Below are positions 6,355 through 37,166 of a stretch of DNA of 64,000 bases, piece by piece (the first letter of the stretch is position 1; each line of letters begins with the position of its first letter). The notes below the pieces were generated by a model. The model was given only the letters and a program-made list of their open reading frames with translations, was not told where the DNA came from and did no database searches. Location of the stretch: the NCBI GenBank assembly GCA_026986775.1, contig JALSNX010000028.1:7609-71608 (forward strand), written 5' to 3'. The translations under genes and the position numbers were made by a program. The stretch comes from a candidate division WOR-3 bacterium (GTDB lineage: Bacteria; Hydrothermota; Hydrothermia; UBA1063; CAJXJZ01).

Positions 6355-7239
6355 TTAAATATCAACACCGATTATTTTCCTTGCAAGAATACCTATGGCA
6401 AAGGATAAAAGAGCGACCCCGAAACTTATGAGGAACATTTCCCAGAAAGTTTTTTTGAAGTTTGCCCCCCTCACCACAGACACAAAAAATGTGAAAAAGT
6501 ATATTACAAAGAGTGCGGCAAAGAGTGTAAAGACAAATGCCACATAGTAGTGTTTAAATAAAAAGTACGGAATCACAATCAAAAAGACGGTAAAAATATA
6601 TGCTATTCCTGTATAAAATGACCCTTTTAAGGGATTTTTGTCACCCTCGTGCCTTCTTGAGAGATACTCAGAGGCAGCCATTGACAAAGAGGCTGCAATG
6701 CCCGTAATCACCCCGGCAAGCCCCACTAACTTTGTATTCCTGAGGGCAAAGGTAAGTCCGGCTATGGTTCCAGTTATCTCAACAAGGGCATCGTTTAGCC
6801 CCAGGACCATTGAGCCTATGTATTCTAATTTTTCTTCATTAAGCATATCAATAAGAGCGTTTTCATGCGTAACCTCATCCTGAATTATATGTTCTGCCTC
6901 TTCAATATGCCCCTTTATAGCTTCGTAAGACTTCTGGGCATCCTCCTCTCCCCCTTCCATGAGTTTAACAGCAAAGGTGATACCCATGATCCGTGCTATT
7001 ATGGTGTACAGAAAAACCCTGAGTCTATCGGGTTTTACATCCACACCGGTGTATTTTTTCCATATTTCATAGTGTGCCCTCTCATCCCTTGCTATTTTTT
7101 CAAGCACCTTTCTGTTTTCACCCTTTGCCATTTTTGCAAGTTTCAGATAAAAATAATGTTCTGTAATTTCATTTTTCTGAAATTCAATTATTTTTTTTCT
7201 AAGTCTCTCATCCATGTTGTTGCTCCTTTTTATTCCCAA
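6355..7239 (-). CDS. mbfA: Membrane-bound ferritin-like (erythrin) / VIT1-CCC1 iron transporter fusion (MbfA-like)
   Basis: 294 aa. N-terminal rubrerythrin/ferritin-like four-helix region (EHYFYLKLA, ERAHYEIW, EAEHIIQDE), then a C-terminal VIT1 family membrane domain with about 5 TM segments. Confidence 0.7.
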   Translation of the reverse strand: MGIKRSNNMDERLRKKIIEFQKNEITEHYFYLKLAKMAKGENRKVLEKIARDERAHYEIWKKYTGVDVKPDRLRVFLYTIIARIMGITFAVKLMEGGEEDAQKSYEAIKGHIEEAEHIIQDEVTHENALIDMLNEEKLEYIGSMVLGLNDALVEITGTIAGLTFALRNTKLVGLAGVITGIAASLSMAASEYLSRRHEGDKNPLKGSFYTGIAYIFTVFLIVIPYFLFKHYYVAFVFTLFAALFVIYFFTFFVSVVRGANFKKTFWEMFLISFGVALLSFAIGILARKIIGVDI

Positions 7240-9235
7240 GTCTATAAATCACGAATCTTTTATTTTCAAAAACTTTTCTTAATAAAGCCCTGCCACTTAT
7301 TTCAGTATCATCAATCTCCCTGTTGCAGATGATTTCGCGGGGCACAATGAAATAATCAATGTGATATTTATCAGAAAGGACTTCTTCTGGAAAATTTCCT
7401 TTACCCTCAAAGTATTCATCAATTTTCCGTGCTATTTTCATTCTTTTGTACCATTCTATTGCAAACCTTCTGTTAAACACACCTTTTCCGCCGTCAGTAA
7501 ACAGGACAAATACATTTCTTAATAACCTATTTCTTAGCCATACTCCTACAAGGTTATCTCTGTTCCAGACGTAAAAAACATCATTCTCATTGGTATGATC
7601 TTTTATCCATGAGAATACCTCATTTAATAACCACCTGTTTCTGTATTCTGGTAGGTAGCTTTTAATATTAACACTCCGCAAATATGAATTAAATATCTCC
7701 GTTTCATCTCTTAATATGCGGTTTATAGTATCGTCTTTCCCTTCACTATAATTACTCAAGGCATATAGACCGGACAAAAGAATCATTGAGGCAAGTAGAG
7801 TTTTGAAAGCAAAAAGGGAGTTCCTGACACTCCACAGATATGCGAACAATACACAGGCACTCAGAGCAATAACTAAATAAATTAATACTGGGACTGGCTT
7901 TTGAAGTAGAACGAGCCAGGATGAATAAAGAAATATGACATCTCCACTTAGTAAAATAAGGGAAATAAGCCATACCGGCCAATATCTTTTTTTTGAATAT
8001 AATAATAGACCTTTACTTTTTGTAAACACAAACAGTATACCCAGTATACCCGTCAATGGTAAAACCATAAACTCATATACAATATTAAAAATAACCAAAA
8101 TAGTGAGTAACCATAGAAAAATAATATTTTTCAAAAACAAATTGTTGATTTTAAATGAAATTATATTATAAAATGAACTTAAAAAGAGTATTAATAAAAT
8201 TACTCTAAAAAAAATAGTTACTCTGAGCAGTTGTAAAGACAATAATGGCTGAACGGGAAATAGAGAAGAAATAACCCCAATAATTGCACTTAATAATGAG
8301 AATATCACTAAATAGTGTATTTTCAATACATCTTTTTTTGCTAAACTCATTCTACCAGTATATGATAACATTTTGTATAAAATAGCATAAGAAATTATAC
8401 CCACTGGAAGCAATATAAGATATATGATATTATATTGCTGATCAAAGAACAAAAAAAGATAGCCACTCCTTAAGATACTTAGCCATTCACTGTCAACGAT
8501 TTTCAGATTCAAAATATGTACAGGAGTAAAACGATAATTCACTATAAAGTACAACGTCAATAAAATTATACTCCCAGCTAATACAATCAAAAATTTTGCT
8601 CTACTATCAAATTCACAAAATCTTGTCTTATAATAATAATAAAAAACTGCACCAATAATAGGTATAGGTGTAATAACATGAAATGCAAGTGCTACAAGTA
8701 GCATTATACCTGCCAGAACATACCGTTCCTTTCTGTAAAATGATATTGCTATTAGAGAAAGTGCAAAAGATATATTACGTGGAACAAGTCCATAGGGATT
8801 AAACACTCTAATGAAAGTAAATAAATATGGAGTTACAGGAGGGAGGAAAACAAGAGGTAAAAAGAGGCTGAATATTTTTCTTTTAGAAATCCAGTAAGAA
8901 AGGTCAAAAAGTCCCCAGAAGATTATGAACTTGGTGATAATATCCAAAATATTTATTATATTTAGTAGCTTAAGTTTAAATGCCCTGTGAATACCAATTA
9001 TTATATTATCGTATATAGTAAAATTTGTTTGTAAAAAAGTAGTGGTTAAATCGTGATTTAGCAACTTAGGATCAATCTTATGTATTATCTCAGGAAGATA
9101 ATGCCAGGCAAGGTCACCATATAAAGTGTAATGTCCGGGAAGAACAAGAAAACTAAACATCGTATAAATAGCAAAAATTAGTGACAGATAAATAAACCCT
9201 GTAGTGTTTTCTTCCAATTCTCTTAACTTCAACAT
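7208..9235 (-). CDS. Large polytopic membrane protein with C-terminal soluble domain (GT-C-like architecture; function unknown)
   Basis: 675 aa. About 12 predicted TM helices in the first roughly 440 aa, then a roughly 200-aa hydrophilic C-terminal domain. Strongly AT-rich codon usage (I/L/F/Y/N/K rich) compared with its neighbours. Start overlaps the stop of the upstream gene at 9235 (translational coupling). Confidence 0.6.
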   Translation of the reverse strand: MLKLRELEENTTGFIYLSLIFAIYTMFSFLVLPGHYTLYGDLAWHYLPEIIHKIDPKLLNHDLTTTFLQTNFTIYDNIIIGIHRAFKLKLLNIINILDIITKFIIFWGLFDLSYWISKRKIFSLFLPLVFLPPVTPYLFTFIRVFNPYGLVPRNISFALSLIAISFYRKERYVLAGIMLLVALAFHVITPIPIIGAVFYYYYKTRFCEFDSRAKFLIVLAGSIILLTLYFIVNYRFTPVHILNLKIVDSEWLSILRSGYLFLFFDQQYNIIYLILLPVGIISYAILYKMLSYTGRMSLAKKDVLKIHYLVIFSLLSAIIGVISSLFPVQPLLSLQLLRVTIFFRVILLILFLSSFYNIISFKINNLFLKNIIFLWLLTILVIFNIVYEFMVLPLTGILGILFVFTKSKGLLLYSKKRYWPVWLISLILLSGDVIFLYSSWLVLLQKPVPVLIYLVIALSACVLFAYLWSVRNSLFAFKTLLASMILLSGLYALSNYSEGKDDTINRILRDETEIFNSYLRSVNIKSYLPEYRNRWLLNEVFSWIKDHTNENDVFYVWNRDNLVGVWLRNRLLRNVFVLFTDGGKGVFNRRFAIEWYKRMKIARKIDEYFEGKGNFPEEVLSDKYHIDYFIVPREIICNREIDDTEISGRALLRKVFENKRFVIYRLGNKKEQQHG

Positions 9236-10089
9236 TATTCGTTTTTCCTATGATGCTCCACTAGATTGCTTGTGCTTTTTACTGTTCCATCACTGTCAAT
9301 ATAAAATCTCCCACCATAAGGGTCTTGAGGTATTTTTTTCATATACCCCTTTTGTTTAAGTTCATTTAAATCATACGGTAATCTGCCCTCTTTCCTTTTA
9401 AAGGCCTCCACTGCCCTCTCTATTTTAAGAACTCCAAGTAAAGCCTTTTTTCTCTTTAAAAGTTCCCTTTTCCAGTTTTCATCATCTGTATTCTTAATCT
9501 GACCGTCAAGAATATTCAGTGCTATTTCTGTTCTTCCCGAGGCGTAATAGAGTCTTGATGCAAGAGAGGCGAGAAAGGCGCTGCGTTTTAATTTTGCTGC
9601 CTCTGTCATATACTCAGCAGCAAGGTCATATTTCTTCATGAAGTAAAAATAATTAAAACTCAGAAGGAAATACCAGAACCAATCGCTTTTTCTGTATTTT
9701 ATGGCCCTTTTCAAGACCTTTTCCGCATCACTGTATCTTTTAAAATCCCACATCAGATTCAACGAAGCAATATAGTAAATGTCAAAATAATACGGATTTA
9801 AAGCACTTGCCACTCTGTAAGCCTTAAATACAACATCCCCCACCCATTCTGGAAAGTATGGATGCTGTTCAAGTATGGTCGCAAGAAATACACGTAAATC
9901 AAGAGTAACCCAGAAACTTCTTATTCCCTCATAGTCCAGGCTCATAATTTTTTCTGCCTCTGGTGAAAGGAGAAAAAGCCCTGCATTGGCCTTTTGAATC
10001 TTCCTGTATCGGGATATCTCAGGAACCATATAGGAATTTGTAGCAATCAGAAGACCTGCCAGCAAAAACCCCAAAAACACTCTCTTCAT
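9235..10089 (-). CDS. Secreted TPR-like protein with C-terminal GspG (T2SS pseudopilin)-like domain
   Basis: 284 aa. Hydrophobic N-terminal signal (MKRVFLGFLLAGLLIA) with no prepilin G|FTLIE site, and helical TPR-like repeats. The C-terminus KGYMKKIPQDPYGGRFYIDSDG matches the GspG/EpsG core motif GGYI[KR]RLP[KQ]DPWGxxYQ. Confidence 0.6.
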   Translation of the reverse strand: MKRVFLGFLLAGLLIATNSYMVPEISRYRKIQKANAGLFLLSPEAEKIMSLDYEGIRSFWVTLDLRVFLATILEQHPYFPEWVGDVVFKAYRVASALNPYYFDIYYIASLNLMWDFKRYSDAEKVLKRAIKYRKSDWFWYFLLSFNYFYFMKKYDLAAEYMTEAAKLKRSAFLASLASRLYYASGRTEIALNILDGQIKNTDDENWKRELLKRKKALLGVLKIERAVEAFKRKEGRLPYDLNELKQKGYMKKIPQDPYGGRFYIDSDGTVKSTSNLVEHHRKNE

Positions 10090-10859
10090 TTTATCTCTTT
10101 TTTCTGAAAAAAAAGAATGCTCAAAAGGATAAGAATAAAACTGTATATAAGCCCATATAGAAGGACAAGTATGTAATGTCCCGAACCGATTGAAAGCCCA
10201 TAAGAGAGCGATATCTTCATATCAAAGAAGGAAAAATTTGGAAAAATATAATACGCCGATTTTACAAGAAATTTTGAAATTAGAGGAATGTTCTCTGCTC
10301 GTTTTGTCTGAATAAATTGTACAGCATCGTCAAGATTGACACCAATCACGTAAATAAATAGTATTATGAAGGAAATAAGAACAGGCCGTTTACTGGCATT
10401 TATAAGAAAGTAAGCAAGAGAGGTAATAAGTAGCATCATAACCCATAAAAGTGGTAACTGAAGAAAAAGAACAGTTTTGAATTCTTTAAACAACAGGGCA
10501 TTGAGAATAACAAAGCCAGATAGCATGAGCGTGCTTGTAAAAATACCTGAAAAAACTATTCCGAAAACCCTTCCAAGGATATAATCCATTCTTTTCAGAG
10601 GCAGGGACAGCAGGTACTCAATGGTCTTTTTATTGAGGTCCTCTGTCAAAAAAGAAAAAATCAGGAAGAAGACAAGAACCAGAGTCAAAAACTCGGTGAC
10701 TGAAAGGGAATAGGTAAACATTACTTTTGATGCTTCAAACATGGTAAAATCATTTACAATGAAGTAAATAAAAAGCGAAAATAAATACAGAATCAATGTA
10801 CTGTAAAATGCCCTTTCTTTAACAGCCTCTTTAAGCGTGAGATACAGCATCCGCACCAT
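10086..10859 (-). CDS. ABC-2 family transporter permease
   Basis: 257 aa, about 6 TM helices, no soluble domain. Overlaps the ATPase gene upstream and the TPR gene downstream by 4-29 nt. Confidence 0.7.
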   Translation of the reverse strand: MVRMLYLTLKEAVKERAFYSTLILYLFSLFIYFIVNDFTMFEASKVMFTYSLSVTEFLTLVLVFFLIFSFLTEDLNKKTIEYLLSLPLKRMDYILGRVFGIVFSGIFTSTLMLSGFVILNALLFKEFKTVLFLQLPLLWVMMLLITSLAYFLINASKRPVLISFIILFIYVIGVNLDDAVQFIQTKRAENIPLISKFLVKSAYYIFPNFSFFDMKISLSYGLSIGSGHYILVLLYGLIYSFILILLSILFFQKKEIK

Positions 10860-11580
10860 TGTTCAGTGCCTCCACAAAAATATCTTCAAGGCGTTTATTT
10901 AAAAGCATGTTCCTTTCTATTTCCTTTATGATTTTACCGCGATTTAAAATGAGAATCCTGTCACACATATCCTCTATGTCTTCAAGAATGTGAGATGTAA
11001 AGAATACTGTTTTGCCTTTATTTTTATGTTCAATTATGAGTTCTTTTGCCATCTTTCTCCCCAGGGGGTCAAGCCCGGAAAGCGGCTCATCTAAAATCAC
11101 AAATTCTGGACTACCAAGGAACGCCTGTGCAAGTCCGAGCCTCTGGACCATACCTTTTGAGTATTTCCTTATGGATTTTTTTTCACTGCCCTGTAAACCC
11201 ACTCTAAAAATTAAAGATTCTATGGTGTCTTTAATTTTTTTACTGTTTACCCCTCTCAATCCTCCTACAAAACTCAAAAACTCAACTGCATTAAGATTTT
11301 CAAAAAACACAGGGTTTTCAGGAAGATATGCTATTCTTCTTTTGATTTTAACATCATGTGTATAAGATCCGAACACCCTAACATTACCCTTATCCGGAAA
11401 TAAAAGTCCGAGCATAATTTTTATAGTTGTACTCTTACCCTGCCCATTAAGCCCAACAAGACCCAGTATTTCTCCCTTCTTTACCCTGAAGGATATGCCA
11501 CTGAGTACCTTCTGCATGGGACCACCAATATCTTTTATCCTGAAGGATTTTTCCACCTCTTTAAACTCAACGATTTTCAT
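10831..11580 (-). CDS. ABC transporter ATP-binding protein (ABC-2 / DrrA-NatA type)
   Basis: 249 aa. Walker A GLNGQGKST, signature YSKGMVQRLGLAQA, Walker B FVILDEP, H-loop TSH. Confidence 0.9.
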   Translation of the reverse strand: MKIVEFKEVEKSFRIKDIGGPMQKVLSGISFRVKKGEILGLVGLNGQGKSTTIKIMLGLLFPDKGNVRVFGSYTHDVKIKRRIAYLPENPVFFENLNAVEFLSFVGGLRGVNSKKIKDTIESLIFRVGLQGSEKKSIRKYSKGMVQRLGLAQAFLGSPEFVILDEPLSGLDPLGRKMAKELIIEHKNKGKTVFFTSHILEDIEDMCDRILILNRGKIIKEIERNMLLNKRLEDIFVEALNNGADAVSHA

Positions 11581-11614
11581 CGCATTCTAAATTATAAGTT
11601 GAAAAATGTGGATA

Positions 11615-11644
11615 TAAAAAAAAGGGGGCCAGAGCCCCCTTTTT
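11615..11644 (-). terminator. Rho-independent (bidirectional) terminator downstream of pilA
   Basis: GGGGGC-cagA-GCCCCC hairpin (11624-11639), flanked by A8 on the plus strand (a U-tract on the minus strand) and T5. Confidence 0.6.
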
Positions 11645-11661
11645 AGCTTCTACAATATTTC

Positions 11662-12168
11662 TTACTGGAGTACCCAGTTGTTACCACTCGGACCTGCTAC
11701 ACCATTAAAGTCATCCTGCTGTGCGACAGAGGCAGGACAGTCACCATCCTGAAGTAGGACATTGACATTTCCGTCAGCCTTATCAAAGTAAATACCCTGC
11801 ACGTCAGAATCTGCACCATAATAGGTATCACCATTTACGTGTTTTGTCACCATGGTGTAACTCACATAATTAGCATCTGTATGTATGGTGATAGAAACCT
11901 TTGTAGAGAGGTTAAATGTCTCTGTATGTGTACCATCACTGATTGTTACCTGGTTAGGTGCAGAAACCACACCGCCAGTGTTGCCATAGCTCTGCCAGTC
12001 AGCAAAGAATGCTTCCTCTGTGGTTCTTGCGTTTCTCAGGTCACTCTCTGCAGAGCCATTGTATGCTCTTATTCTGTATTTTGCGAACTGCGGTATGGCT
12101 ATTGCAGCCAGGATCGCAATGATTGCGATCACGATGAGGAGTTCTATCAGTGTGAACCCTTTCCTCAT
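11662..12168 (-). CDS. pilA: Type IV pilin (major pilin, class III signal peptide)
   Basis: 168 aa. MRKGFTLIELLIVIAIIAILAAIAIP is the canonical prepilin leader, with cleavage after G, an N-methyl-Phe site, and E5. AGGAGGTA RBS about 7 nt upstream. Confidence 0.9.
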   Translation of the reverse strand: MRKGFTLIELLIVIAIIAILAAIAIPQFAKYRIRAYNGSAESDLRNARTTEEAFFADWQSYGNTGGVVSAPNQVTISDGTHTETFNLSTKVSITIHTDANYVSYTMVTKHVNGDTYYGADSDVQGIYFDKADGNVNVLLQDGDCPASVAQQDDFNGVAGPSGNNWVLQ

Positions 12169-12214: not shown

Positions 12215-12230
12215 AGCAATCTATATGCCA
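12215..12230 (-). promoter_or_regulatory. Candidate sigma-54 (RpoN) -24/-12 promoter for pilA
   Basis: The minus strand reads TGGCAT-ATAGA-TTGCT. This matches TGGCAC-N5-TTGCW with exact GG-N10-GC spacing, about 47 nt upstream of the pilA ATG. Confidence 0.5.
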
Positions 12231-12314: not shown

Positions 12315-13670
12315 TCATTTAATAAGCACCCCCCTATTATAACCTATATAAACCCTGTTATTAAACTCTGCAACGGCTGTAATCCCTTTTACTTCAGGTT
12401 GACCGGGATCAAATGTCTTCCAGTTGCGATGAGCAAAATCGTACATAACAACTCTGTTTGAAGATGCGAGATACACCGAATTATCAGAAGCAACACCGCT
12501 ATGGATGGATAAAAGGTTAAAGGGACTCTTTATAAGATTAATCTTTTTATCTGAAATTATAAATAGTCCCCTCCTTGCCGGCACGTAAATGGCACTATAA
12601 CCCTGAACAATGTAATTGGTTAAAATGGGTTCGTTTTCATAATCAACCTCATTTAAAACAGTATCTTTCAGGGTATAGAGTTTTCCATTCGCAATTAGAT
12701 AAATATCATTAAAAGAGGCAGTGGCATATTTTATAGGCATGATAGAAGTAAAATAGCGCTTTACAGAACCATCATCACTAACTGTAAGTATGCAATTTCG
12801 GGTTGCTATAAAGTTATAGGTTTCGGTATTGAAAGCACAGACAGCATCACCACAGCCTCCATCAAAAGATGTGAAGAAATACGGGTCACTGAGTGTATAA
12901 AAGCCGTTTTTGTTTAAAAGTAAAACGCTTTCACCGATATATAGAAAATCAACAGGACTGAACCCATACTGAAAACAGTCTGTGGAGAGAGAATTTACAT
13001 AATCATCAGAGATCTTCGTCACTCCGGCGGCATGAAGCACGTAAAGGGTATCAAACACTACACCTAACCGATACACAGGAGGCTCTATATTTATATAGAC
13101 TCTCTTTTTCAACTTCTTCATTCTTCTGTCAAATACATATACCCCATTTGCTTTGGTACCAACATAGTCCAGATCATATCCTCCAGCATAACCTGTTGGC
13201 TCAGAAAAAACGTGACAGGGATTTTCATATGTCCTTGTTTTAAGGTACAGGGGCAGAGAACGGGGCTTTGTTAAAAACATGGTATCTATATAAATAGCGG
13301 GCGCAGGCTGGTTAAACTTTGACAGGTATCGCCTGGTACCGTTCTTGTAAAGAAGCATTATTATACCTGCTGAAAACCCCATACCTACAACGCCTCCAAC
13401 CATACCCACCTTTTTTAACGATTCAAAAAAAGGAGAATATACGTAAAGCATTCCGTCTTTTGTAACAAACGCAATCTCACCTGAACGGGAATCATAAGAG
13501 GCAAGACGAACCCATTTTGTGGCATAGGATGAAACAATACCCTCGTTGTTATCATAAACAAAAATCCCGCCATCTGTTGCAGCACAAAATCCTCTGCCTG
13601 TAAACTGCATAGAATTTACATGGGAGAAATCTGCAAGATACAACGTGGCAAATAAGAACAGTTTAATCAT
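12315..13670 (-). CDS. Secreted hypothetical protein, probable beta-propeller fold
   Basis: 451 aa. N-terminal hydrophobic signal, then recurring hydrophobic-Tyr-hydrophobic blade-like strands (VYVFD, LYVLH, FYTLSD, LYTLKD, VYLASS, VYIGY). No catalytic motifs recognised. Confidence 0.5.
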   Translation of the reverse strand: MIKLFLFATLYLADFSHVNSMQFTGRGFCAATDGGIFVYDNNEGIVSSYATKWVRLASYDSRSGEIAFVTKDGMLYVYSPFFESLKKVGMVGGVVGMGFSAGIIMLLYKNGTRRYLSKFNQPAPAIYIDTMFLTKPRSLPLYLKTRTYENPCHVFSEPTGYAGGYDLDYVGTKANGVYVFDRRMKKLKKRVYINIEPPVYRLGVVFDTLYVLHAAGVTKISDDYVNSLSTDCFQYGFSPVDFLYIGESVLLLNKNGFYTLSDPYFFTSFDGGCGDAVCAFNTETYNFIATRNCILTVSDDGSVKRYFTSIMPIKYATASFNDIYLIANGKLYTLKDTVLNEVDYENEPILTNYIVQGYSAIYVPARRGLFIISDKKINLIKSPFNLLSIHSGVASDNSVYLASSNRVVMYDFAHRNWKTFDPGQPEVKGITAVAEFNNRVYIGYNRGVLIK

Positions 13671-15150: not shown

Positions 15151-15599
15151 ATTCCCTCCTTCTTCAACCTCTTTATCATTAAATCTATATGTGAACCTCT
15201 CCAGTAAATTTTATTGCATACTGGACAGAACTTAAACTCATTGAAGTTCTTATAAGTGAAATAGGGCACTTTACCCCTTACATTTTCATGGGGAATGTCC
15301 AAAAGAGGTGCATTACATTTTGAACATCTCGTAAGTATGCGGGGTTCTCTGATATTAAAATGCTTTATTACATCCTTTAGTTGTTCAAACAGAAAATCAC
15401 TTTCAAGCACATATACATTTTTATAAGGAAGGCGATTGAACTCTGTATTTCTCGTAAGAATAACCCTGTTTTCCGCATCAGCTATTTTTAAAAGTGCATC
15501 AGGTTCATGAAAATGCGTTGATTCTGTGTCCTGCCCGAGAAATCTCAACCATTTTGCAAGTTTGAGGACAGTAGCATCGCATAAAAACTTAAAACTCAT
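15132..15599 (-). CDS. Mut7-C RNase domain protein (PF01927-like) with C-terminal zinc ribbon
   Basis: 155 aa. FLCDATVLKLAKWLRFLGQD matches the Mut7-C (DUF82) N-terminal consensus. CxxC...CxxC at the C-terminus. Confidence 0.65.
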   Translation of the reverse strand: MSFKFLCDATVLKLAKWLRFLGQDTESTHFHEPDALLKIADAENRVILTRNTEFNRLPYKNVYVLESDFLFEQLKDVIKHFNIREPRILTRCSKCNAPLLDIPHENVRGKVPYFTYKNFNEFKFCPVCNKIYWRGSHIDLMIKRLKKEGIWELLF

Positions 15600-16368
15600 G
15601 CTGAAGTTTTATGAGTATCTCCCTGAATAAAAATGCTGCCTTTGTGGCTGAATTTGTGGAGTGGTCCATAAGAGGTGAAAATTCCACTATGTCCGCTGCC
15701 ATAATGTTTTTAAGTAGCAGTATCTCATCCAAAATTTCCATTATTCCCTTTCCTCCCGGTTCTGGATTCGTAACGCCGGGAAATTCGGATGGATTGATTA
15801 CATCAAGGTCTAAAGTGAGATAAACTGGAGTTTTTATGTTCAAAAGCTCATTTCTGTAGTCTTCCCATGCGTAAAAGATATTTTTACTTTTTTCTTCGCA
15901 CGGTGCCTTTGTTCTAACTCCAACTGTAATTACATTCTCTTTGCCAATGAGTTTTTCCACGTGATACATGAAGGTTGCATGGTTATAAACCTCTTTTTCA
16001 AACTCAGGACGTCTGTCCATGTGTGCATCAAAATGCACCACCGTAAAATTAAGGTCAAGTTCTTCTTTCAAATATACGATTAGAGGGAAGGTAATAAAAT
16101 GGTCTCCCCCCAGTGCAACAAAAGGAGGAAATAGTTTTATGTCTTTTAACTTTTCTATAAGAAAATCCGCAAAATACTTTCCCTTTATATCAAGGGGCGG
16201 ATAAAAGTCTGAAAGGTCGTGGTATTCTTTAAGTTCTCTTTCCTGAATAACAGAGTAGTATTCTAAAGATGAAAGATGGTACCTTATAAAACCTGGTGCA
16301 AGTGCTGCACCTTTCTGGAAATTTTCACTGCCCTCATAGGGTATGCCAAATACACTAACCAATGGCAT
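15589..16368 (-). CDS. speB: Agmatinase / ureohydrolase (arginase family)
   Basis: 259 aa. Mn-binding motifs GGDHFITFP, HFDAHMD, DLDVINP, SEFPGVTNPEPGG. Confidence 0.85.
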   Translation of the reverse strand: MPLVSVFGIPYEGSENFQKGAALAPGFIRYHLSSLEYYSVIQERELKEYHDLSDFYPPLDIKGKYFADFLIEKLKDIKLFPPFVALGGDHFITFPLIVYLKEELDLNFTVVHFDAHMDRRPEFEKEVYNHATFMYHVEKLIGKENVITVGVRTKAPCEEKSKNIFYAWEDYRNELLNIKTPVYLTLDLDVINPSEFPGVTNPEPGGKGIMEILDEILLLKNIMAADIVEFSPLMDHSTNSATKAAFLFREILIKLQHEF

Positions 16369-17173
16369 TTTTTATAAACTCCGGAAGGGCAAAGAGATGT
16401 TCCTGTATGCTTTTATTGTAGTATTTCAGTCCTTCAGGTATATAATCTCTTTTCACAACAAGTTCCGTATCCGTGGCAATGGTAAAACTCCAGAATCCCC
16501 CTGGATACGTGGGAACTGGAGCAAGATAAAGTTTTACCTCTTTAAAGAGTCTCTTAAGGTTCTTAATCTGCTCTTTTATAACACCAAGATGATACCATGG
16601 AGATTCAGATTGAAAAACTACAATGCCATCATCTTTTAAATTCTTTTTAATGCTTTTATAAAAATCAAGCGAGTAAAGGGCAACAGCCGGACCTACAGGA
16701 TCAGAAGAGTCAACAAAGAGAAGGTCAAACCTTTCATTTCTTTCATTTAAATATTTTACACCGTCCTCATAGTAAATACTGACTCTCTCATCTTTCAGAC
16801 GGGATGATGTAAACTCAAGGTATCTCTCGCTAACTTCAACCACCATCTTATCTATTTCTATGAGCAAAACAGATTCCACATCTGGATATTTAAGTATCTC
16901 TCTTACAGTGCCTCCATCCCCGCCCCCTATAACCCCAGCCTTTTTAACCTGTTCCTTAAAAGAAAAGGCAGGATGAACAAGCATTTCATGATAAACAAAT
17001 TCATCACGCTCTGTAAGCATCACAAGACCATCAAGAACCAGCATCCTGCCAAAAGTTTCTGTCTCAAAAACCTTTATTTCCTGATATGGAGACTTCGCAG
17101 AAAAGAGTTCCCTTTTTATTTTGAATATTATACCCGTTCCTTTATCGTGGAATTCTGTGAAGAACTGGTTCAT
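16355..17173 (-). CDS. speE: Polyamine aminopropyltransferase (spermidine synthase family), copy 1
   Basis: 272 aa. VIGGGDGGTVREILKY, LIEIDKMVV, FDLLFVDSSDPVGPA. Confidence 0.85.
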   Translation of the reverse strand: MNQFFTEFHDKGTGIIFKIKRELFSAKSPYQEIKVFETETFGRMLVLDGLVMLTERDEFVYHEMLVHPAFSFKEQVKKAGVIGGGDGGTVREILKYPDVESVLLIEIDKMVVEVSERYLEFTSSRLKDERVSIYYEDGVKYLNERNERFDLLFVDSSDPVGPAVALYSLDFYKSIKKNLKDDGIVVFQSESPWYHLGVIKEQIKNLKRLFKEVKLYLAPVPTYPGGFWSFTIATDTELVVKRDYIPEGLKYYNKSIQEHLFALPEFIKNAIG

Positions 17174-17661
17174 TAAAAAAGCGCCACTCCTGCAAACACT
17201 GACACTATACCTTCTACTTTCCTTGATATGGTTTTCACCTTTATCTCTTTAACCTTTATACCCCTCATTTCCATGGCATCTTCAGCCATTTGAATAAGAA
17301 GTTTTTCCGCATCCTTTTCTGAGAGATACCCCGAATACTCCATTATCACACCATGCTCCATGGAATTTTCTGGAATGGCTACAGAAATGCCAGCGGTAAT
17401 GAGAGTGCCTTCCTCGGAGCTTTCAATACTTCCATAGGCAATTGGTAGCAGGCTACCTGCAGGAAGGGCTATGGAATTTTGCTCCCTTGCGCCTGGTGGT
17501 AAAATGCTGGATACTCTTATGAGATTGTATCTTGAAATACCAGCATCGTGTAATGCTGCATCAAAGGCATTAAGGTGGGTTCTGCCTCTGCCACTGCCTG
17601 ACACTATTATGAAATTTTCAGGCTTTCCAAACATAGGGCTTTTTGTCTGTAATGATAGCAC
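17173..17661 (-). CDS. pdaD: Pyruvoyl-dependent arginine decarboxylase
   Basis: 162 aa. IVSGSGRG, NAFDAAL, ISRYNLIRVSSILPPG are characteristic of the PdaD family. The true start may be the internal Met (MFGKPENF). Confidence 0.75.
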   Translation of the reverse strand: MLSLQTKSPMFGKPENFIIVSGSGRGRTHLNAFDAALHDAGISRYNLIRVSSILPPGAREQNSIALPAGSLLPIAYGSIESSEEGTLITAGISVAIPENSMEHGVIMEYSGYLSEKDAEKLLIQMAEDAMEMRGIKVKEIKVKTISRKVEGIVSVFAGVALF

Positions 17662-18532
17662 CTTCTCTCATACTCTTTTTCATATATGGAGGAAGAACAG
17701 TCTTTGCAAAAAAGTATTCCGGGGTAAAGTAGTGTATCCTGTCCTTCAAAGCAGCAAATCGCTTTATCATGTCGTTTTTTCTCTCATTGAGCGCGTATTT
17801 CTTTGAAGCGATAAGAAATGCCCAGTTGAGCTGGAATGAAAATATATATTCATGATAACCGAATACAACAGGGAAAACCTCTTTCAATGTGGCACTAAGG
17901 GCTGATATAAACTCTGTGTACAGGTATTCTGCACTGCCTGCCTGCGCCACAAATACAGCATCAGGCGACATTCTGTCCTTCAGTATCTCATAAAAGTCCT
18001 TTGTGAAGAGGTATATGGCAGGTCCCTCCTCTACGGGCTCTGTAAGGTCGGATATAACCACATCAAAAGGCTCTCCACTGTATTCTTCCACAAATTTCCT
18101 TGCATCCTGAAATAAAACAATGCTTCTTTTGTCATCAAAACTACCATCATGCCACGAAGGCAGATACTCTTTGCACATTTTTACAAGTTCTTCATCAATG
18201 TCAACCATGTAAACTTTTTCAACTGGATGTTTTAAAACCTCCCTCAGGGTTGCGCCCTCTCCCCCGCCCATTATAAGGACATTTCGCGGTGCCGGATGAA
18301 GAAGCATTGCAGGATGAACAAGCATATCATGGTAAATATGCTCATCTATTTCTGCTGACTGCAATTTCCCATCAAGAAAAAGGGTTCTACCAAATGCAAA
18401 GAGATCAAGTATTTCAGCATACTGATACATTGTCTTTTTACCTGCCACATACCTCTTCACACGATACTGAAATCTTAAACCTTCAGTGTACGGCTCTTCA
18501 AACCACAAATTACTGTCCGGGTCCTTATCCAT
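17618..18532 (-). CDS. Polyamine aminopropyltransferase (spermidine synthase family), copy 2
   Basis: 304 aa. WFEE N-terminal motif, MGGGEGATLREVLKH, VYMVDIDEELV, DVVISDLTEP. Confidence 0.8.
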   Translation of the reverse strand: MDKDPDSNLWFEEPYTEGLRFQYRVKRYVAGKKTMYQYAEILDLFAFGRTLFLDGKLQSAEIDEHIYHDMLVHPAMLLHPAPRNVLIMGGGEGATLREVLKHPVEKVYMVDIDEELVKMCKEYLPSWHDGSFDDKRSIVLFQDARKFVEEYSGEPFDVVISDLTEPVEEGPAIYLFTKDFYEILKDRMSPDAVFVAQAGSAEYLYTEFISALSATLKEVFPVVFGYHEYIFSFQLNWAFLIASKKYALNERKNDMIKRFAALKDRIHYFTPEYFFAKTVLPPYMKKSMREGAIITDKKPYVWKA

Positions 18533-18544
18533 ACACTTCCTACC

Positions 18545-18949
18545 TTACACGTATGCTTCTTCCTTAACTGAATCAGCATATTTGTACATGTCCTGCTCGC
18601 GGAAAACTCCACGCTTCATTTCCATTACAGTCATATGTCCCGGTCTGAAGTACTTTTCAAAGAGTTTTAAAGCCACATCTATATCAACATCATCAGAGCA
18701 GTAGAAATAATCTACAGCAGCATAACCATGTTCAGGCCATGTGTGTATTGAAAGATGGGATTCTTCTATTATAACCACACCTGAGACTCCATGTGGCTGG
18801 AACTGATGGAAGAATGAACCGAGGGCGTGGGCATTGGATTTTTTTGCTATATCAAGGAATGCTCTCTCAACCTGATCCTTATTTTTGAGGGTTTCAGGAT
18901 CACAATCATACATTTCTATTATTACATGCACCCCAAGGGCTTTTTTCAA
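18545..18949 (-). CDS. speD: S-adenosylmethionine decarboxylase proenzyme (small bacterial/archaeal type)
   Basis: 134 aa. Self-cleavage and active-site region IEESHLSIHTWPE. GGAGGTG RBS. Confidence 0.85.
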   Translation of the reverse strand: MKKALGVHVIIEMYDCDPETLKNKDQVERAFLDIAKKSNAHALGSFFHQFQPHGVSGVVIIEESHLSIHTWPEHGYAAVDYFYCSDDVDIDVALKLFEKYFRPGHMTVMEMKRGVFREQDMYKYADSVKEEAYV

Positions 18950-34919: not shown

Positions 34920-37166
34920 TTAAAACTGAGTGCCGAACTGAATATGGGGAACCCACTTGCCTCCATTGTTATTAAACCCATAGGCAAGGTCAAATCCAAC
35001 AATGCCCAGCATGGGCATTTCCATTCTTATTCCAATACCTGCACCTTTTTTTAGAACAAAAGGACGCATGTAAGATGAGTTTTTCCATGCATTTCCGGCA
35101 TCAAAAAACAAAAGTCCATAGGTACTTTCACTGAATCTATACCTCAATTCCATTGTACCAATCAGAAAAACCCGTCCACCTACGTTCACACCATTTTCAT
35201 GGGGGCCAACACTTCTGAGCTCATATCCTCGCAATCCAAACGCTCCAACATCTCCAAGGAAAAACCTTTCATTGAATGGCACGTCTTCAGCCGCATAAAG
35301 TCCAACCACACTGCCTGTAAATCCACGCAGAGCAAGTATTATTTTCCTCCTGTAGTTAAAGAGCTGTGACCTTTCAACAGTAAGCTTTCCAAAATTGGCA
35401 TCCCCCATGAGTGGACCGCCTGCAAGTTTGGTTGTTACAACAGTTCTTTCTCCATTCATTGCATTAAAAGACCTGTCCCGTGTATCTCTTGTGAATGTCA
35501 GTGTAATGGCAGAGGTTAGAACAGGCTTTTCCTGTGTCCACTCCTCAAATTCGGGCAATGATTTTAACTCGTCAGGAATATCCTTGAGAGTAACCCTTTC
35601 AAGGGTGTAGCCATAACCAAGATAATTGAAGTCACTTATGATTCTCTGACGATACCCCAGAGAGAACCCTTCCTTTTGTTCAGTATAGGAAGGTAAATAT
35701 CTCGTTGTATAATACACTGCTCCAGAGAAAGACCGTCTCTTTCCTCCAATCCACGGAATCGTGTAATTCAGAGATACATTTCGTCTCTGAGCGCCATATT
35801 CAACAATACCACCTACAGTCTGGCCTCTTCCAAGGAAATTTGGCTCCTGAATCTGAAAATAAAAAGATAATCCATCTATTTCAGAATATGTTGCTCCAAG
35901 TCCAAGCTGGCCTGTTGATTTTTCCTCCACTTTGAATGTCACGTCTATTTGAGAAGAATCTGACGTCTCTGAAAAATCCATTGAGACATTACTGAAATAA
36001 TTGAGGTAATAGAGGTTCCGCTGAGACCTTATGGCCATCTTTCTTGAAAAATACTCACCGGGGAAAAGATACAGCTCTCTTCTTATAACTTCATCAAAGG
36101 TCTTTGTATTACCTTTGATATTGACTTTCCTGACTCTGACCCTAACCCCCTCATTGATATAAACGATGAAATCAACCGTATCGCCCCGTACACTATCACG
36201 CGGATATACAGTTGCATAGATATACCCGGAATCAGCATAAAGTGACTGAATATTCTCAAGACTCTTTTCTAATTTCTTCTGAGAATATACCGCTTTTGGC
36301 CGTAGAACCCATAAGAGGTTCAAAAGTCTGCTCTTAAACAATTTGTTACCTTCAAATCTCACCTTACCGGCATAATACTTCTTTCCCTCTGTAATATATA
36401 TCCTTATATAGATGTCCTTTCCTTTTCTATCCACCTTAAACGAATCAACACGGGCATTCATATATCCACGATTTCTATAATACTCCTCTATTTTCTTCAT
36501 ATCATTCTGAAGTTCTTCTCTTTTAAGTTTGCCCGACCTCAAAAAGCCACGTGGCTTATTCTTCATCTTTGCAATCAGCTTTTTATCTTTAAATACGGTG
36601 TTACCAAAGATTTCAACCTTTTTTATGCGCGCTTTAGGACCTTCGTTAATCTCAAAAACCACATCCGTGAGACATCCTTTTCTGTTTCTATAAGAATAAC
36701 TTATCTCTGCATAGGGATAGCCTTTCTCTGTATAAATATCTTTTATGTACGCTACTGTTTCTTCAAGAAGAGCATCGGAAACTGGGTCACCCCTGTGAAG
36801 GGGAAAACGCTTTATAACCTTTTCCTCTGTATTTTCACCAGTGCCAACCTCTTTAGTACGGTCTTTTGTAAGTTCCGAAGTTTTGACCTTCCTGTTGCCC
36901 TTGAATATGATACTATCCACTCTGGGATTCTCAGTAATATATAGATAGATATCAAGGGAGTCTCCATTTCTTACCGCTCTCACTCTCACCTGCTCTGCAA
37001 AGTTATGCTTTATAAGGTCTTTTATCGCTTTATCAATTTCCGGATAGGATATATCAACGTCCTCTCTTAGTCCTGTAAATGTACGGTAAAAATCGGTGCG
37101 GTTGCACATTGCACCTGAAAAACTCACGGTTCTTATTACGAAGGAAACAAGAAAGGCTATCAACAT
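34920..37166 (-). CDS. bamA: Outer membrane protein assembly factor BamA (Omp85)
   Basis: 748 aa. Signal peptide, POTRA repeats, C-terminal beta-barrel ending ...HIQFGTQF (aromatic C-terminal beta-signal). Confidence 0.85.
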   Translation of the reverse strand: MLIAFLVSFVIRTVSFSGAMCNRTDFYRTFTGLREDVDISYPEIDKAIKDLIKHNFAEQVRVRAVRNGDSLDIYLYITENPRVDSIIFKGNRKVKTSELTKDRTKEVGTGENTEEKVIKRFPLHRGDPVSDALLEETVAYIKDIYTEKGYPYAEISYSYRNRKGCLTDVVFEINEGPKARIKKVEIFGNTVFKDKKLIAKMKNKPRGFLRSGKLKREELQNDMKKIEEYYRNRGYMNARVDSFKVDRKGKDIYIRIYITEGKKYYAGKVRFEGNKLFKSRLLNLLWVLRPKAVYSQKKLEKSLENIQSLYADSGYIYATVYPRDSVRGDTVDFIVYINEGVRVRVRKVNIKGNTKTFDEVIRRELYLFPGEYFSRKMAIRSQRNLYYLNYFSNVSMDFSETSDSSQIDVTFKVEEKSTGQLGLGATYSEIDGLSFYFQIQEPNFLGRGQTVGGIVEYGAQRRNVSLNYTIPWIGGKRRSFSGAVYYTTRYLPSYTEQKEGFSLGYRQRIISDFNYLGYGYTLERVTLKDIPDELKSLPEFEEWTQEKPVLTSAITLTFTRDTRDRSFNAMNGERTVVTTKLAGGPLMGDANFGKLTVERSQLFNYRRKIILALRGFTGSVVGLYAAEDVPFNERFFLGDVGAFGLRGYELRSVGPHENGVNVGGRVFLIGTMELRYRFSESTYGLLFFDAGNAWKNSSYMRPFVLKKGAGIGIRMEMPMLGIVGFDLAYGFNNNGGKWVPHIQFGTQF

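Follow-up and report, generated by a model that had tools for sequence, protein, structure and literature searches.

The closest described counterpart of the gene analyzed here is pilG of Myxococcus xanthus, whose proteins PilG, PilH and PilI have reportedly been known as essential for type IV pili since the work of Wu et al. in 1998. The operon of M. xanthus is arranged in the order pilA-pilG-pilH-pilI (PMC3546991). Each of the genes pilG, pilH and pilI is required for pili, S-motility and pilin export, and single deletions behave like pilus-negative mutants; the genetic evidence for a role in pilus assembly and pilin export comes from M. xanthus only (PMC3724824, PMC5544727, PMC3924187). A comparative survey tabulated the PilG proteins of myxobacteria, Bacteriovorax and Bdellovibrio (Bd1291) as 'hypothetical / NO_domain' (PMC6060248 supplement). 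Here we analyzed a stretch of 64,000 nucleotides from contig JALSNX010000028.1 (in the following the window) and in particular an open reading frame (ORF) of 284 amino acids (aa) at positions 9235-10089 on the minus strand.

The window resembles the M. xanthus locus in several respects. PilG of M. xanthus (MXAN_5782; TC 3.A.1.144.5) is encoded together with the ATP-binding cassette (ABC) ATPase PilH and the ABC-2 permease PilI (PF12679) beside pilA, and an ABC ATPase and an ABC-2 permease are likewise co-encoded with the ORF in the window. A gene for the major pilin, pilA, is linked to the ORF in the window (11662-12168), and at other loci the family is linked to pilin genes and to further genes of type IV pilus clusters. 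Additionally, both proteins are accessory proteins of approximately 280-370 aa, presumably extracytoplasmic in the case of the window, with no assigned Pfam domain. The window differs from M. xanthus in its gene order, in which pilA is followed by a terminator and then by ATPase, permease and the PilG-like gene, and in its host, a distant, AT-rich and probably FCB (Fibrobacteres-Chlorobi-Bacteroidetes)/WOR-3-like lineage. Identity of the window protein to the subfamily with the order pilA-G-H-I (P0082) is only about 27%.

Because of synteny, shared architecture and a homolog encoded in a metagenome-assembled genome (MAG) of Myxococcota, we regard the ORF, with a probability of roughly 70%, as the PilG-type accessory subunit belonging to an ABC-2 transporter that is linked to a pilin gene and consists of a PilH-like ATPase and a PilI-like permease, with a mechanism of pilin handling as the best explanation.

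Other ABC-2 systems provide a more general comparison. NosD with NosFY and GldG with GldAF are dedicated periplasmic partners of such systems, and in NosDFY the hydrolysis of ATP drives conformational work in the periplasm and not solute transport. The window is similar to NosDFY and GldAFG in that a dedicated extracytoplasmic partner is encoded in the same operon, and the best NCBIfam match of its ATPase is GldA. However, the folds of NosD (a beta-helix) and of the large GldG are unrelated to the PilG-type protein, and the analogy is drawn from general background.

A leaderless pilin-like head behind a TPR body

The protein could be divided into an N-terminal segment, a body of tetratricopeptide repeats (TPR) and a C-terminal head:

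9235-10089, minus strand: probable PilG-type accessory protein, ORF of 284 aa with 83 homologs; full-length AlphaFold 2 (AF2) model with a predicted local distance difference test (pLDDT) score of 92.1
9982-10089, minus strand: N-terminal signal or membrane anchor, residues 1-36, with a hydrophobic core at residues 4-17 (VFLGFLLAGLLIAT) and a helix 2-36 in the model
9490-9963, minus strand: body of TPR-like helical repeats (residues 43-200) that carries the family motif GFNYFYF
9238-9480, minus strand: C-terminal leaderless GspG-like pilin head with an alpha1C-like helix 204-234 and a short helix 241-246
9310-9324, minus strand: DPYGG core motif read in the sequence, counterpart of DPWG in GspG; D256, P257, Y258 and G260 are invariant

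The sequence-only reading of the window had placed a GspG-like core at the C-terminus of a TPR protein and cited a peptide that corresponds to residues 237-270 of the 284-aa protein. This assignment was confirmed by a profile search, by the ranking of folds and by the conserved motif. Alignment to the T2SSG family (PF08334), which had been proposed as a check, gave a divided result. With the single sequence the match remained below the gathering score of 21 (E=0.015, 15.8 bits, residues 243-270), and TIGR01710 (gspG) was far from its cutoff of 88.85 (E=0.027, 14.5 bits). A profile built from 60 C-terminal fragments, non-redundant and drawn from both subfamilies (profile A2), in contrast, did match GspG chains in a search of the complete set of PDB sequences. 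Seven GspG/EpsG/PulG chains (E-values 3.9e-5 to 2.4e-3) and the pilin ComGC (9e-3) made up the best eight matches, and the next match followed at E=0.24. The aligned part runs from the alpha1C helix through the loop to the DPWG strand and contains a deletion of 13-16 residues relative to GspG.

In a family alignment of 35 members with 24-75% identity the invariant residues included T273 besides the four positions of the DPYGG motif, and this motif was invariant across phyla. The consensus of the head reads P-x-DPYGG-x-FY-x-D-x-x-G-x-V-x-(S/T)TS. The mean consensus frequency was highest in the alpha-beta loop and the hairpin (0.58-0.63), followed by the TPR body (0.51) and the N-terminus (0.30). 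As the best conserved region of the family, the head is argued to be its functional part. Six of the 35 members matched T2SSG individually (best E=0.0014), and N_methyl was absent among the families matched by the aligned members. Nearly all of these homologs shared the leaderless architecture and a length of approximately 280 aa; one of them seems to be truncated at the N-terminus.

The structure prediction, likewise proposed as a check, returned a TPR-like body and a partial pilin-like head in a confident full-length model (predicted template modelling score 0.81). Residues 43-200 form all-helical repeats; these stacked helix-turn-helix repeats are characteristic of a TPR solenoid, and the matches of the single sequence to TPR_19 and TPR_14 were slightly under cutoff. 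The family motif of the body is present as SFNYFYF in the window protein (residues 144-150). The head continues from its helices with the DPYGG turn (256-260), a beta-hairpin (262-272, strands 262-264 and 270-272) and a conserved S/T-T-S. A fold search with the whole protein returned only TPR proteins and was uninformative on the head, which was therefore modelled and searched separately. With the head alone, Foldseek ranked PulG, EpsG, GspG of enterohaemorrhagic Escherichia coli and PilA1 of Clostridioides difficile first with probabilities of 0.9-0.99, the best E-value of 0.098 not being significant. Taken by sequence and predicted fold, the matches are specific to pilins.

The head thus carries the elements of the T2SSG globular core, namely alpha1C, the alpha-beta loop, the DPWG-type motif and beta-sheet, in a partial form. 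Only the two strands beta1 and beta2 are present, with 12 residues remaining to the C-terminus of the protein. A third strand is missing, and so is the C-terminal region in which we take the calcium site of GspG to be located. In comparison to GspG-type proteins (GspG/PulG/EpsG/XcpT; PF08334, TIGR01710), the window protein lacks the class III leader and the N-methylation site as well as Glu5 and the hydrophobic alpha1N. Furthermore, the head is shortened within the alpha-beta loop and ends after beta2, it is fused behind a TPR domain, and it is encoded outside a gsp operon, with no gene of the type II secretion system (T2SS) found among the window ORFs scanned. The proposed recombination of domains is real, and it is conserved across a large family.

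The N-terminus (MKRVFLGFLLAGLLIATNSY) consists of a positively charged start followed by a single hydrophobic stretch of approximately 14 residues, and this segment is the sole transmembrane-like (TM-like) one of the protein. Neither G|FxxxE, nor Glu at +5, nor Cys, nor a match to N_methyl was found in this region (MKRVFLGFLLAGLLIATN), in keeping with the earlier description as an ordinary hydrophobic signal instead of a class III leader. A lipobox was also missing, as Cys is absent from residues 1-30 in the window protein and in most homologs. The start of the ORF is the first start codon past the preceding in-frame stop. The in-frame stretch upstream of it (...FEHSFFSEKRDK) overlaps the end of the upstream gene and contains neither a start nor a leader motif, and therefore no hidden prepilin leader is present; a cryptic prepilin site after an alternative start, as considered in the sequence-only reading, was not found in frame.

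Family members and their linkage to pilin and transporter genes

Homologs of the window protein were numerous. The first search returned 83 and a profile 366 proteins of approximately 280 aa, and an exhaustive phmmer search with P0277 matched 1,781 cluster representatives (clustered at 50% identity) with E<=1e-3, of which 621 reached E<=1e-10. The sources that could be named include Nitrospirota (including Thermodesulfovibrio), Aquificota (Aquificaceae, Desulfurobacteriaceae, Thermovibrio), WOR-3, Desulfuromonadales (including Geobacter, Geoalkalibacter and Geopsychrobacteraceae), Desulfobacula, Desulforapulum, Desulfocapsa, Bdellovibrionota, Myxococcota and Candidatus Eisenbacteria. Neither Pfam nor NCBIfam contained a model for the family; PF26697 was precomputed for one member (P0167) and was not reproduced with the local Pfam copy. 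No Myxococcus xanthus protein was among the matches of the homology searches and the exhaustive representative search, and cluster look-ups of the high-GC matches led to one Myxococcota MAG protein and one Candidatus Eisenbacteria protein only.

A 496-aa protein (P0241) was examined as a fusion of a PilG-type protein with the ABC ATPase, i.e. as Rosetta-stone evidence, and was rejected. Neither the head nor the beginning of the ATPase domain is present in it, and it is probably an artefact of gene calling or assembly, since a periplasmic domain fused to a cytoplasmic one without a TM segment is implausible. P0360 (467 aa) and P0403 (398 aa) resemble this fusion by match coordinates alone.

In the window the following features surround the gene:

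10086-10859, minus strand: ABC-2 type permease, PilI-like, 257 aa, polytopic, with weak matches to ABC2_membrane_3/2/5
10831-11580, minus strand: ABC transporter ATPase, PilH-like, 249 aa, of the GldA/DrrA class (PF00005, E=1.3e-27); overlaps the permease gene
11591-11618, minus strand: sigma-70-like promoter TTTATA-16-TATAAT ahead of the ABC ATPase gene
11619-11644, minus strand: intrinsic terminator after pilA, a G+C-rich stem of 11 bp followed by a T run
11662-12168, minus strand: type IVa prepilin PilA, 168 aa, MRKG|FTLIELLIVIAIIAILAAIAIPQF (N_methyl, E=1e-8)
12215-12230, minus strand: candidate sigma-54-type promoter TGGCAT-N5-TTGCT upstream of pilA, near-consensus, read from the sequence
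7208-9235, minus strand: polytopic membrane protein of 675 aa without Pfam or NCBIfam match; its start overlaps the stop of the PilG-like gene

The stop of the permease gene overlaps the start of the PilG-like gene (ATGA), and the orthologous permeases at other loci match PF12679 or PF13346. For the ATPase the best NCBIfam matches were GldA and DrrA, each under its cutoff. The gene pilA lies 81 bases upstream of the ATPase gene, and within NCBIfam its product best matches the Myxococcus-type PilA model, in the N-terminal part of that model. Judging by the putative promoter ahead of each and the terminator in between, pilA and the ABC/PilG genes seem to be transcribed as separate or attenuated units.

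The genomic context was counted in 38 non-redundant loci, each with an upstream flank of at least 4.5 kb. An ABC-2 permease was adjacent to the PilG-family gene in all 38 loci and an ABC ATPase in 37, being 1.7 kb away in the remaining one. A prepilin-type ORF was found within 4.5 kb in 30 of the 38 loci, and in 29 of these it was located upstream on the same strand. In locus L054 the nearest pilin gene abuts the PilG-family gene downstream, with a second one 1.65 kb upstream. Pilin linkage is common and not universal.

Five loci of Nitrospirota/Thermodesulfovibrio (L008, L009, L010, L012 and L022) showed a different order, namely permease, PilG-like gene and ATPase. No prepilin gene was present within 4.5 kb in L008 and L012, where the upstream flank was sufficient, the flanks of the other three being too short. 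A nearby pilin gene was also not found in the Aquificaceae/Aquificota loci L043, L048 and L049.

In six loci (L001, L003, L004, L059, L060 and L061) the module is located within a pil gene context (pilB/T/C, pilS/R, pilX, pilY1). The order pilB-pilC-pilS/R-pilA, followed by the PilG-family gene, ABC ATPase and ABC-2 permease, was found in L004, L059 and L060 and belongs to the divergent subfamily of P0082, P0169 and P0277, which includes proteins of MAGs labelled Bdellovibrionota, Bdellovibrionales and Deltaproteobacteria. The order in these Bdellovibrionota-type loci matches the M. xanthus operon and thus supports the identification as PilG. The Myxococcota MAG homolog (P0402) is encoded directly after a PilA with the Myxococcus-type PF14245 and upstream of the prepilin peptidase gene pilD, and here the ABC pair is located just upstream of pilA.

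Short pilins of the Geobacter PilA-N type with approximately 60 mature residues were encoded upstream of the ABC/PilG module in many Desulfobacterota loci (L003, L005, L017, L018, L019, L023, L025, L027, L028, L029, L032, L038, L040, L051 and L052). In L003 and L005 the short pilin gene is followed by an ORF of 116-127 aa, a candidate for a PilA-C-like protein. The PilG family may be tied to the biogenesis of such Geobacter-type short pilins.

Further genes were seen next to or near the module. In L003 (4432-5301 and 669-3638) and L005 (10668-16864) these encode a UbiA prenyltransferase, glycosyltransferases of families 2 and 9 and a second, Wzm/Wzt-like ABC-2 exporter, which may represent a locus for pilin glycosylation or for a polysaccharide. 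Close to the pilA/PilG module, a gene for a class I S-adenosylmethionine (SAM) methyltransferase (Methyltransf_23/11) was repeatedly found in Myxococcota and Bdellovibrionota-type loci, namely L061 (10880-11623), L004 (3511-4254) and L060 (13720-14508); in L061 this gene lies between the PilG-like gene and pilD.

Possible function and rival explanations

The N-terminal anchor or signal, the absence of a further TM segment and the translational coupling to the permease point, on the level of sequence, to a location on the periplasmic face of the inner membrane. Lacking a class III leader and a hydrophobic alpha1N, the PilG-type protein cannot be a pilin substrate: it can neither undergo cleavage by the prepilin peptidase PilD nor enter the filament core and polymerise like a pilin. 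The anchor and the TPR body would hold it on the periplasmic face of the permease PilI, a placement suggested by the periplasmic accessory proteins of other ABC-2 permeases. The head, as a mimic of a pilin head, may dock on a surface that normally binds the pilin head, either in the membrane-embedded pilin pool or at the pilus assembly platform. ATP-driven movements of PilHI could thereby be coupled to pilin handling, for example to the release or handover of pilins at the inner membrane. Such a coupling would fit the reported block of pilin export and assembly in pilGHI mutants.

We tentatively suggest that PilG might be a membrane-tethered pilin mimic which lets the ABC-2 motor PilHI act directly on pilin subunits. 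Within the inner membrane it might use ATP to extract pilins, to chaperone them or to control their quality, and thereby provide a second energy input besides PilB/PilT. If true, type IV filament biogenesis would receive this second input in no fewer than about nine or ten phyla or candidate phyla of bacteria, often in combination with short Geobacter-type (PilA-N) pilins. Why a pilus needs an ABC transporter has long been unexplained, and the pilin-like head is a concrete and testable clue to a possible way in which the transporter recognises pilins. PilG-type proteins accompany the Geobacter PilA-N-type short pilins in Desulfuromonadales and Desulfobacula, which bears on the making of these much-debated filaments. 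A description of PilG as TPR protein with a leaderless GspG-like head was not found in the available literature or family databases; the PilG-type family is large and spread over many phyla, yet without a Pfam or NCBIfam model. For the window itself, the analysis provides an annotation of the pilA-pilH-pilI-pilG module in an uncultured AT-rich diderm.

Several points weigh against an assignment as PilG with a function in pilin handling. The majority of type IV pilus systems do without a transporter of this kind. The equivalence to PilG rests on synteny, architecture and the Myxococcota homolog and not on a direct alignment to PilG of M. xanthus (O30384 / MXAN_5782). No prepilin gene was present within 4.5 kb in eight of the 38 loci (Nitrospirota, Aquificaceae and some Desulfobacterota), and in the window a strong terminator parts pilA from the ABC genes. 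That the head docks the transporter onto pilins is a conjecture of ours, and both the interaction and the transport substrate are putative for every family member. Furthermore, the conserved DPYGG turn could serve structure alone.

The alternative that survives best, and one we still consider rather unlikely, is that the ABC-2 transporter exports a glycan, a lipid-linked sugar or an exopolysaccharide (EPS) like Wzm/Wzt or TagGH. The PilG-type protein would then be a periplasmic accessory whose head at most directs the product to the pilin for glycosylation, or the pilin linkage would be regulatory. The ATPase belongs to the GldA/DrrA class of ABC-2 systems, whose exporters often move glycans, and the Geobacter genes directly after pilA (GSU1498-1508) have been named an extracellular anchoring polysaccharide cluster (PMC3495685). 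In L003 and L005 the genes beside the module encode UbiA, glycosyltransferases and a large polytopic membrane protein with TPR, and in the window the PilG-like gene is followed by the gene of the 675-aa polytopic membrane protein. However, glycan genes are not conserved around the module and were absent in L001, L004, L006, L059 and L060, and the 675-aa protein has no detectable similarity to the protein of L003/L005. The M. xanthus pilGHI mutants are EPS-negative as well, but the EPS defect of pil mutants in this species is a general result of pilus loss and is bypassed by pilB(WA). In addition, the conserved pilin-fold head would be without an obvious role in glycan export.

The sequence-only reading had suggested a possible adaptor at the pilus tip or one docking to the secretin, with the pseudopilin head grafted on a TPR scaffold. 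The head indeed has a pilin fold, and the TPR proteins PilF, PilW and Tgl are secretin pilotins, dedicated like the protein studied here to type IV pilus biogenesis. They are outer-membrane lipoproteins acting on the secretin, whereas the window protein has no lipobox, ends in a pilin-like head and is linked to an ABC transporter of the inner membrane. Similarity to YfgM, the inner-membrane-anchored periplasmic TPR protein of the SecYEG-PpiD complex, is generic to TPR proteins only, as YfgM has neither a pilin-like head nor an ABC partner. With alpha1N missing as well, the ABC pair linked at every locus examined, and no gene for a secretin, T2SS or type IV pilus machinery among the other window ORFs scanned (more than 40 ORFs in all), a role as tip or secretin adaptor was not supported and seems very improbable. 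The synteny with the pilin-linked PilGHI points to a place at inner membrane and periplasm and not at tip or secretin.

The reading as a minor pilin, degenerate or mis-annotated, whose leader would appear from the true start, or as a chance motif in an ordinary TPR protein, for which the sub-threshold T2SSG match of the single sequence could be cited, was refuted by the missing alternative start and in-frame leader motif, the leaderless homologs, the invariant motif and the pilin-specific profile and fold matches, and has a practically negligible probability.

Other genes of the window

The gene of the 675-aa membrane protein is probably co-transcribed with the PilG-like gene. It was considered as a conserved fourth component of the module and rejected, since no similarity to the proteins encoded at the corresponding position of L003 and L005 could be detected and the gene is absent elsewhere. 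Those two proteins are TPR-bearing polytopic membrane proteins of 584 and 597 aa with a mutual identity of 34%, which we read as GT-C-like.

Directly upstream of pilA an ORF of 451 aa (12315-13670, minus strand) without Pfam or NCBIfam match was found at a position which is taken by pilR in other loci; neither pilS nor pilR is adjacent to pilA in the window. The window also encodes a BamA/Omp85 protein and a C25 peptidase with a C-terminal sorting domain of the type IX secretion system (34920-37166 and 49467-52385, both minus strand). These genes mark the host as a diderm that possesses type IX secretion, which is consistent with an FCB/WOR-3-like lineage. In the WOR-3 locus L001 a Por_Secre_tail protein adjoins the PilG gene too. 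Finally, a compact cluster for polyamine biosynthesis is located at 15589-18949 on the minus strand, consisting of an agmatinase/arginase-family gene, two spermidine synthase paralogs, a pyruvoyl-dependent arginine decarboxylase and a SAM decarboxylase.

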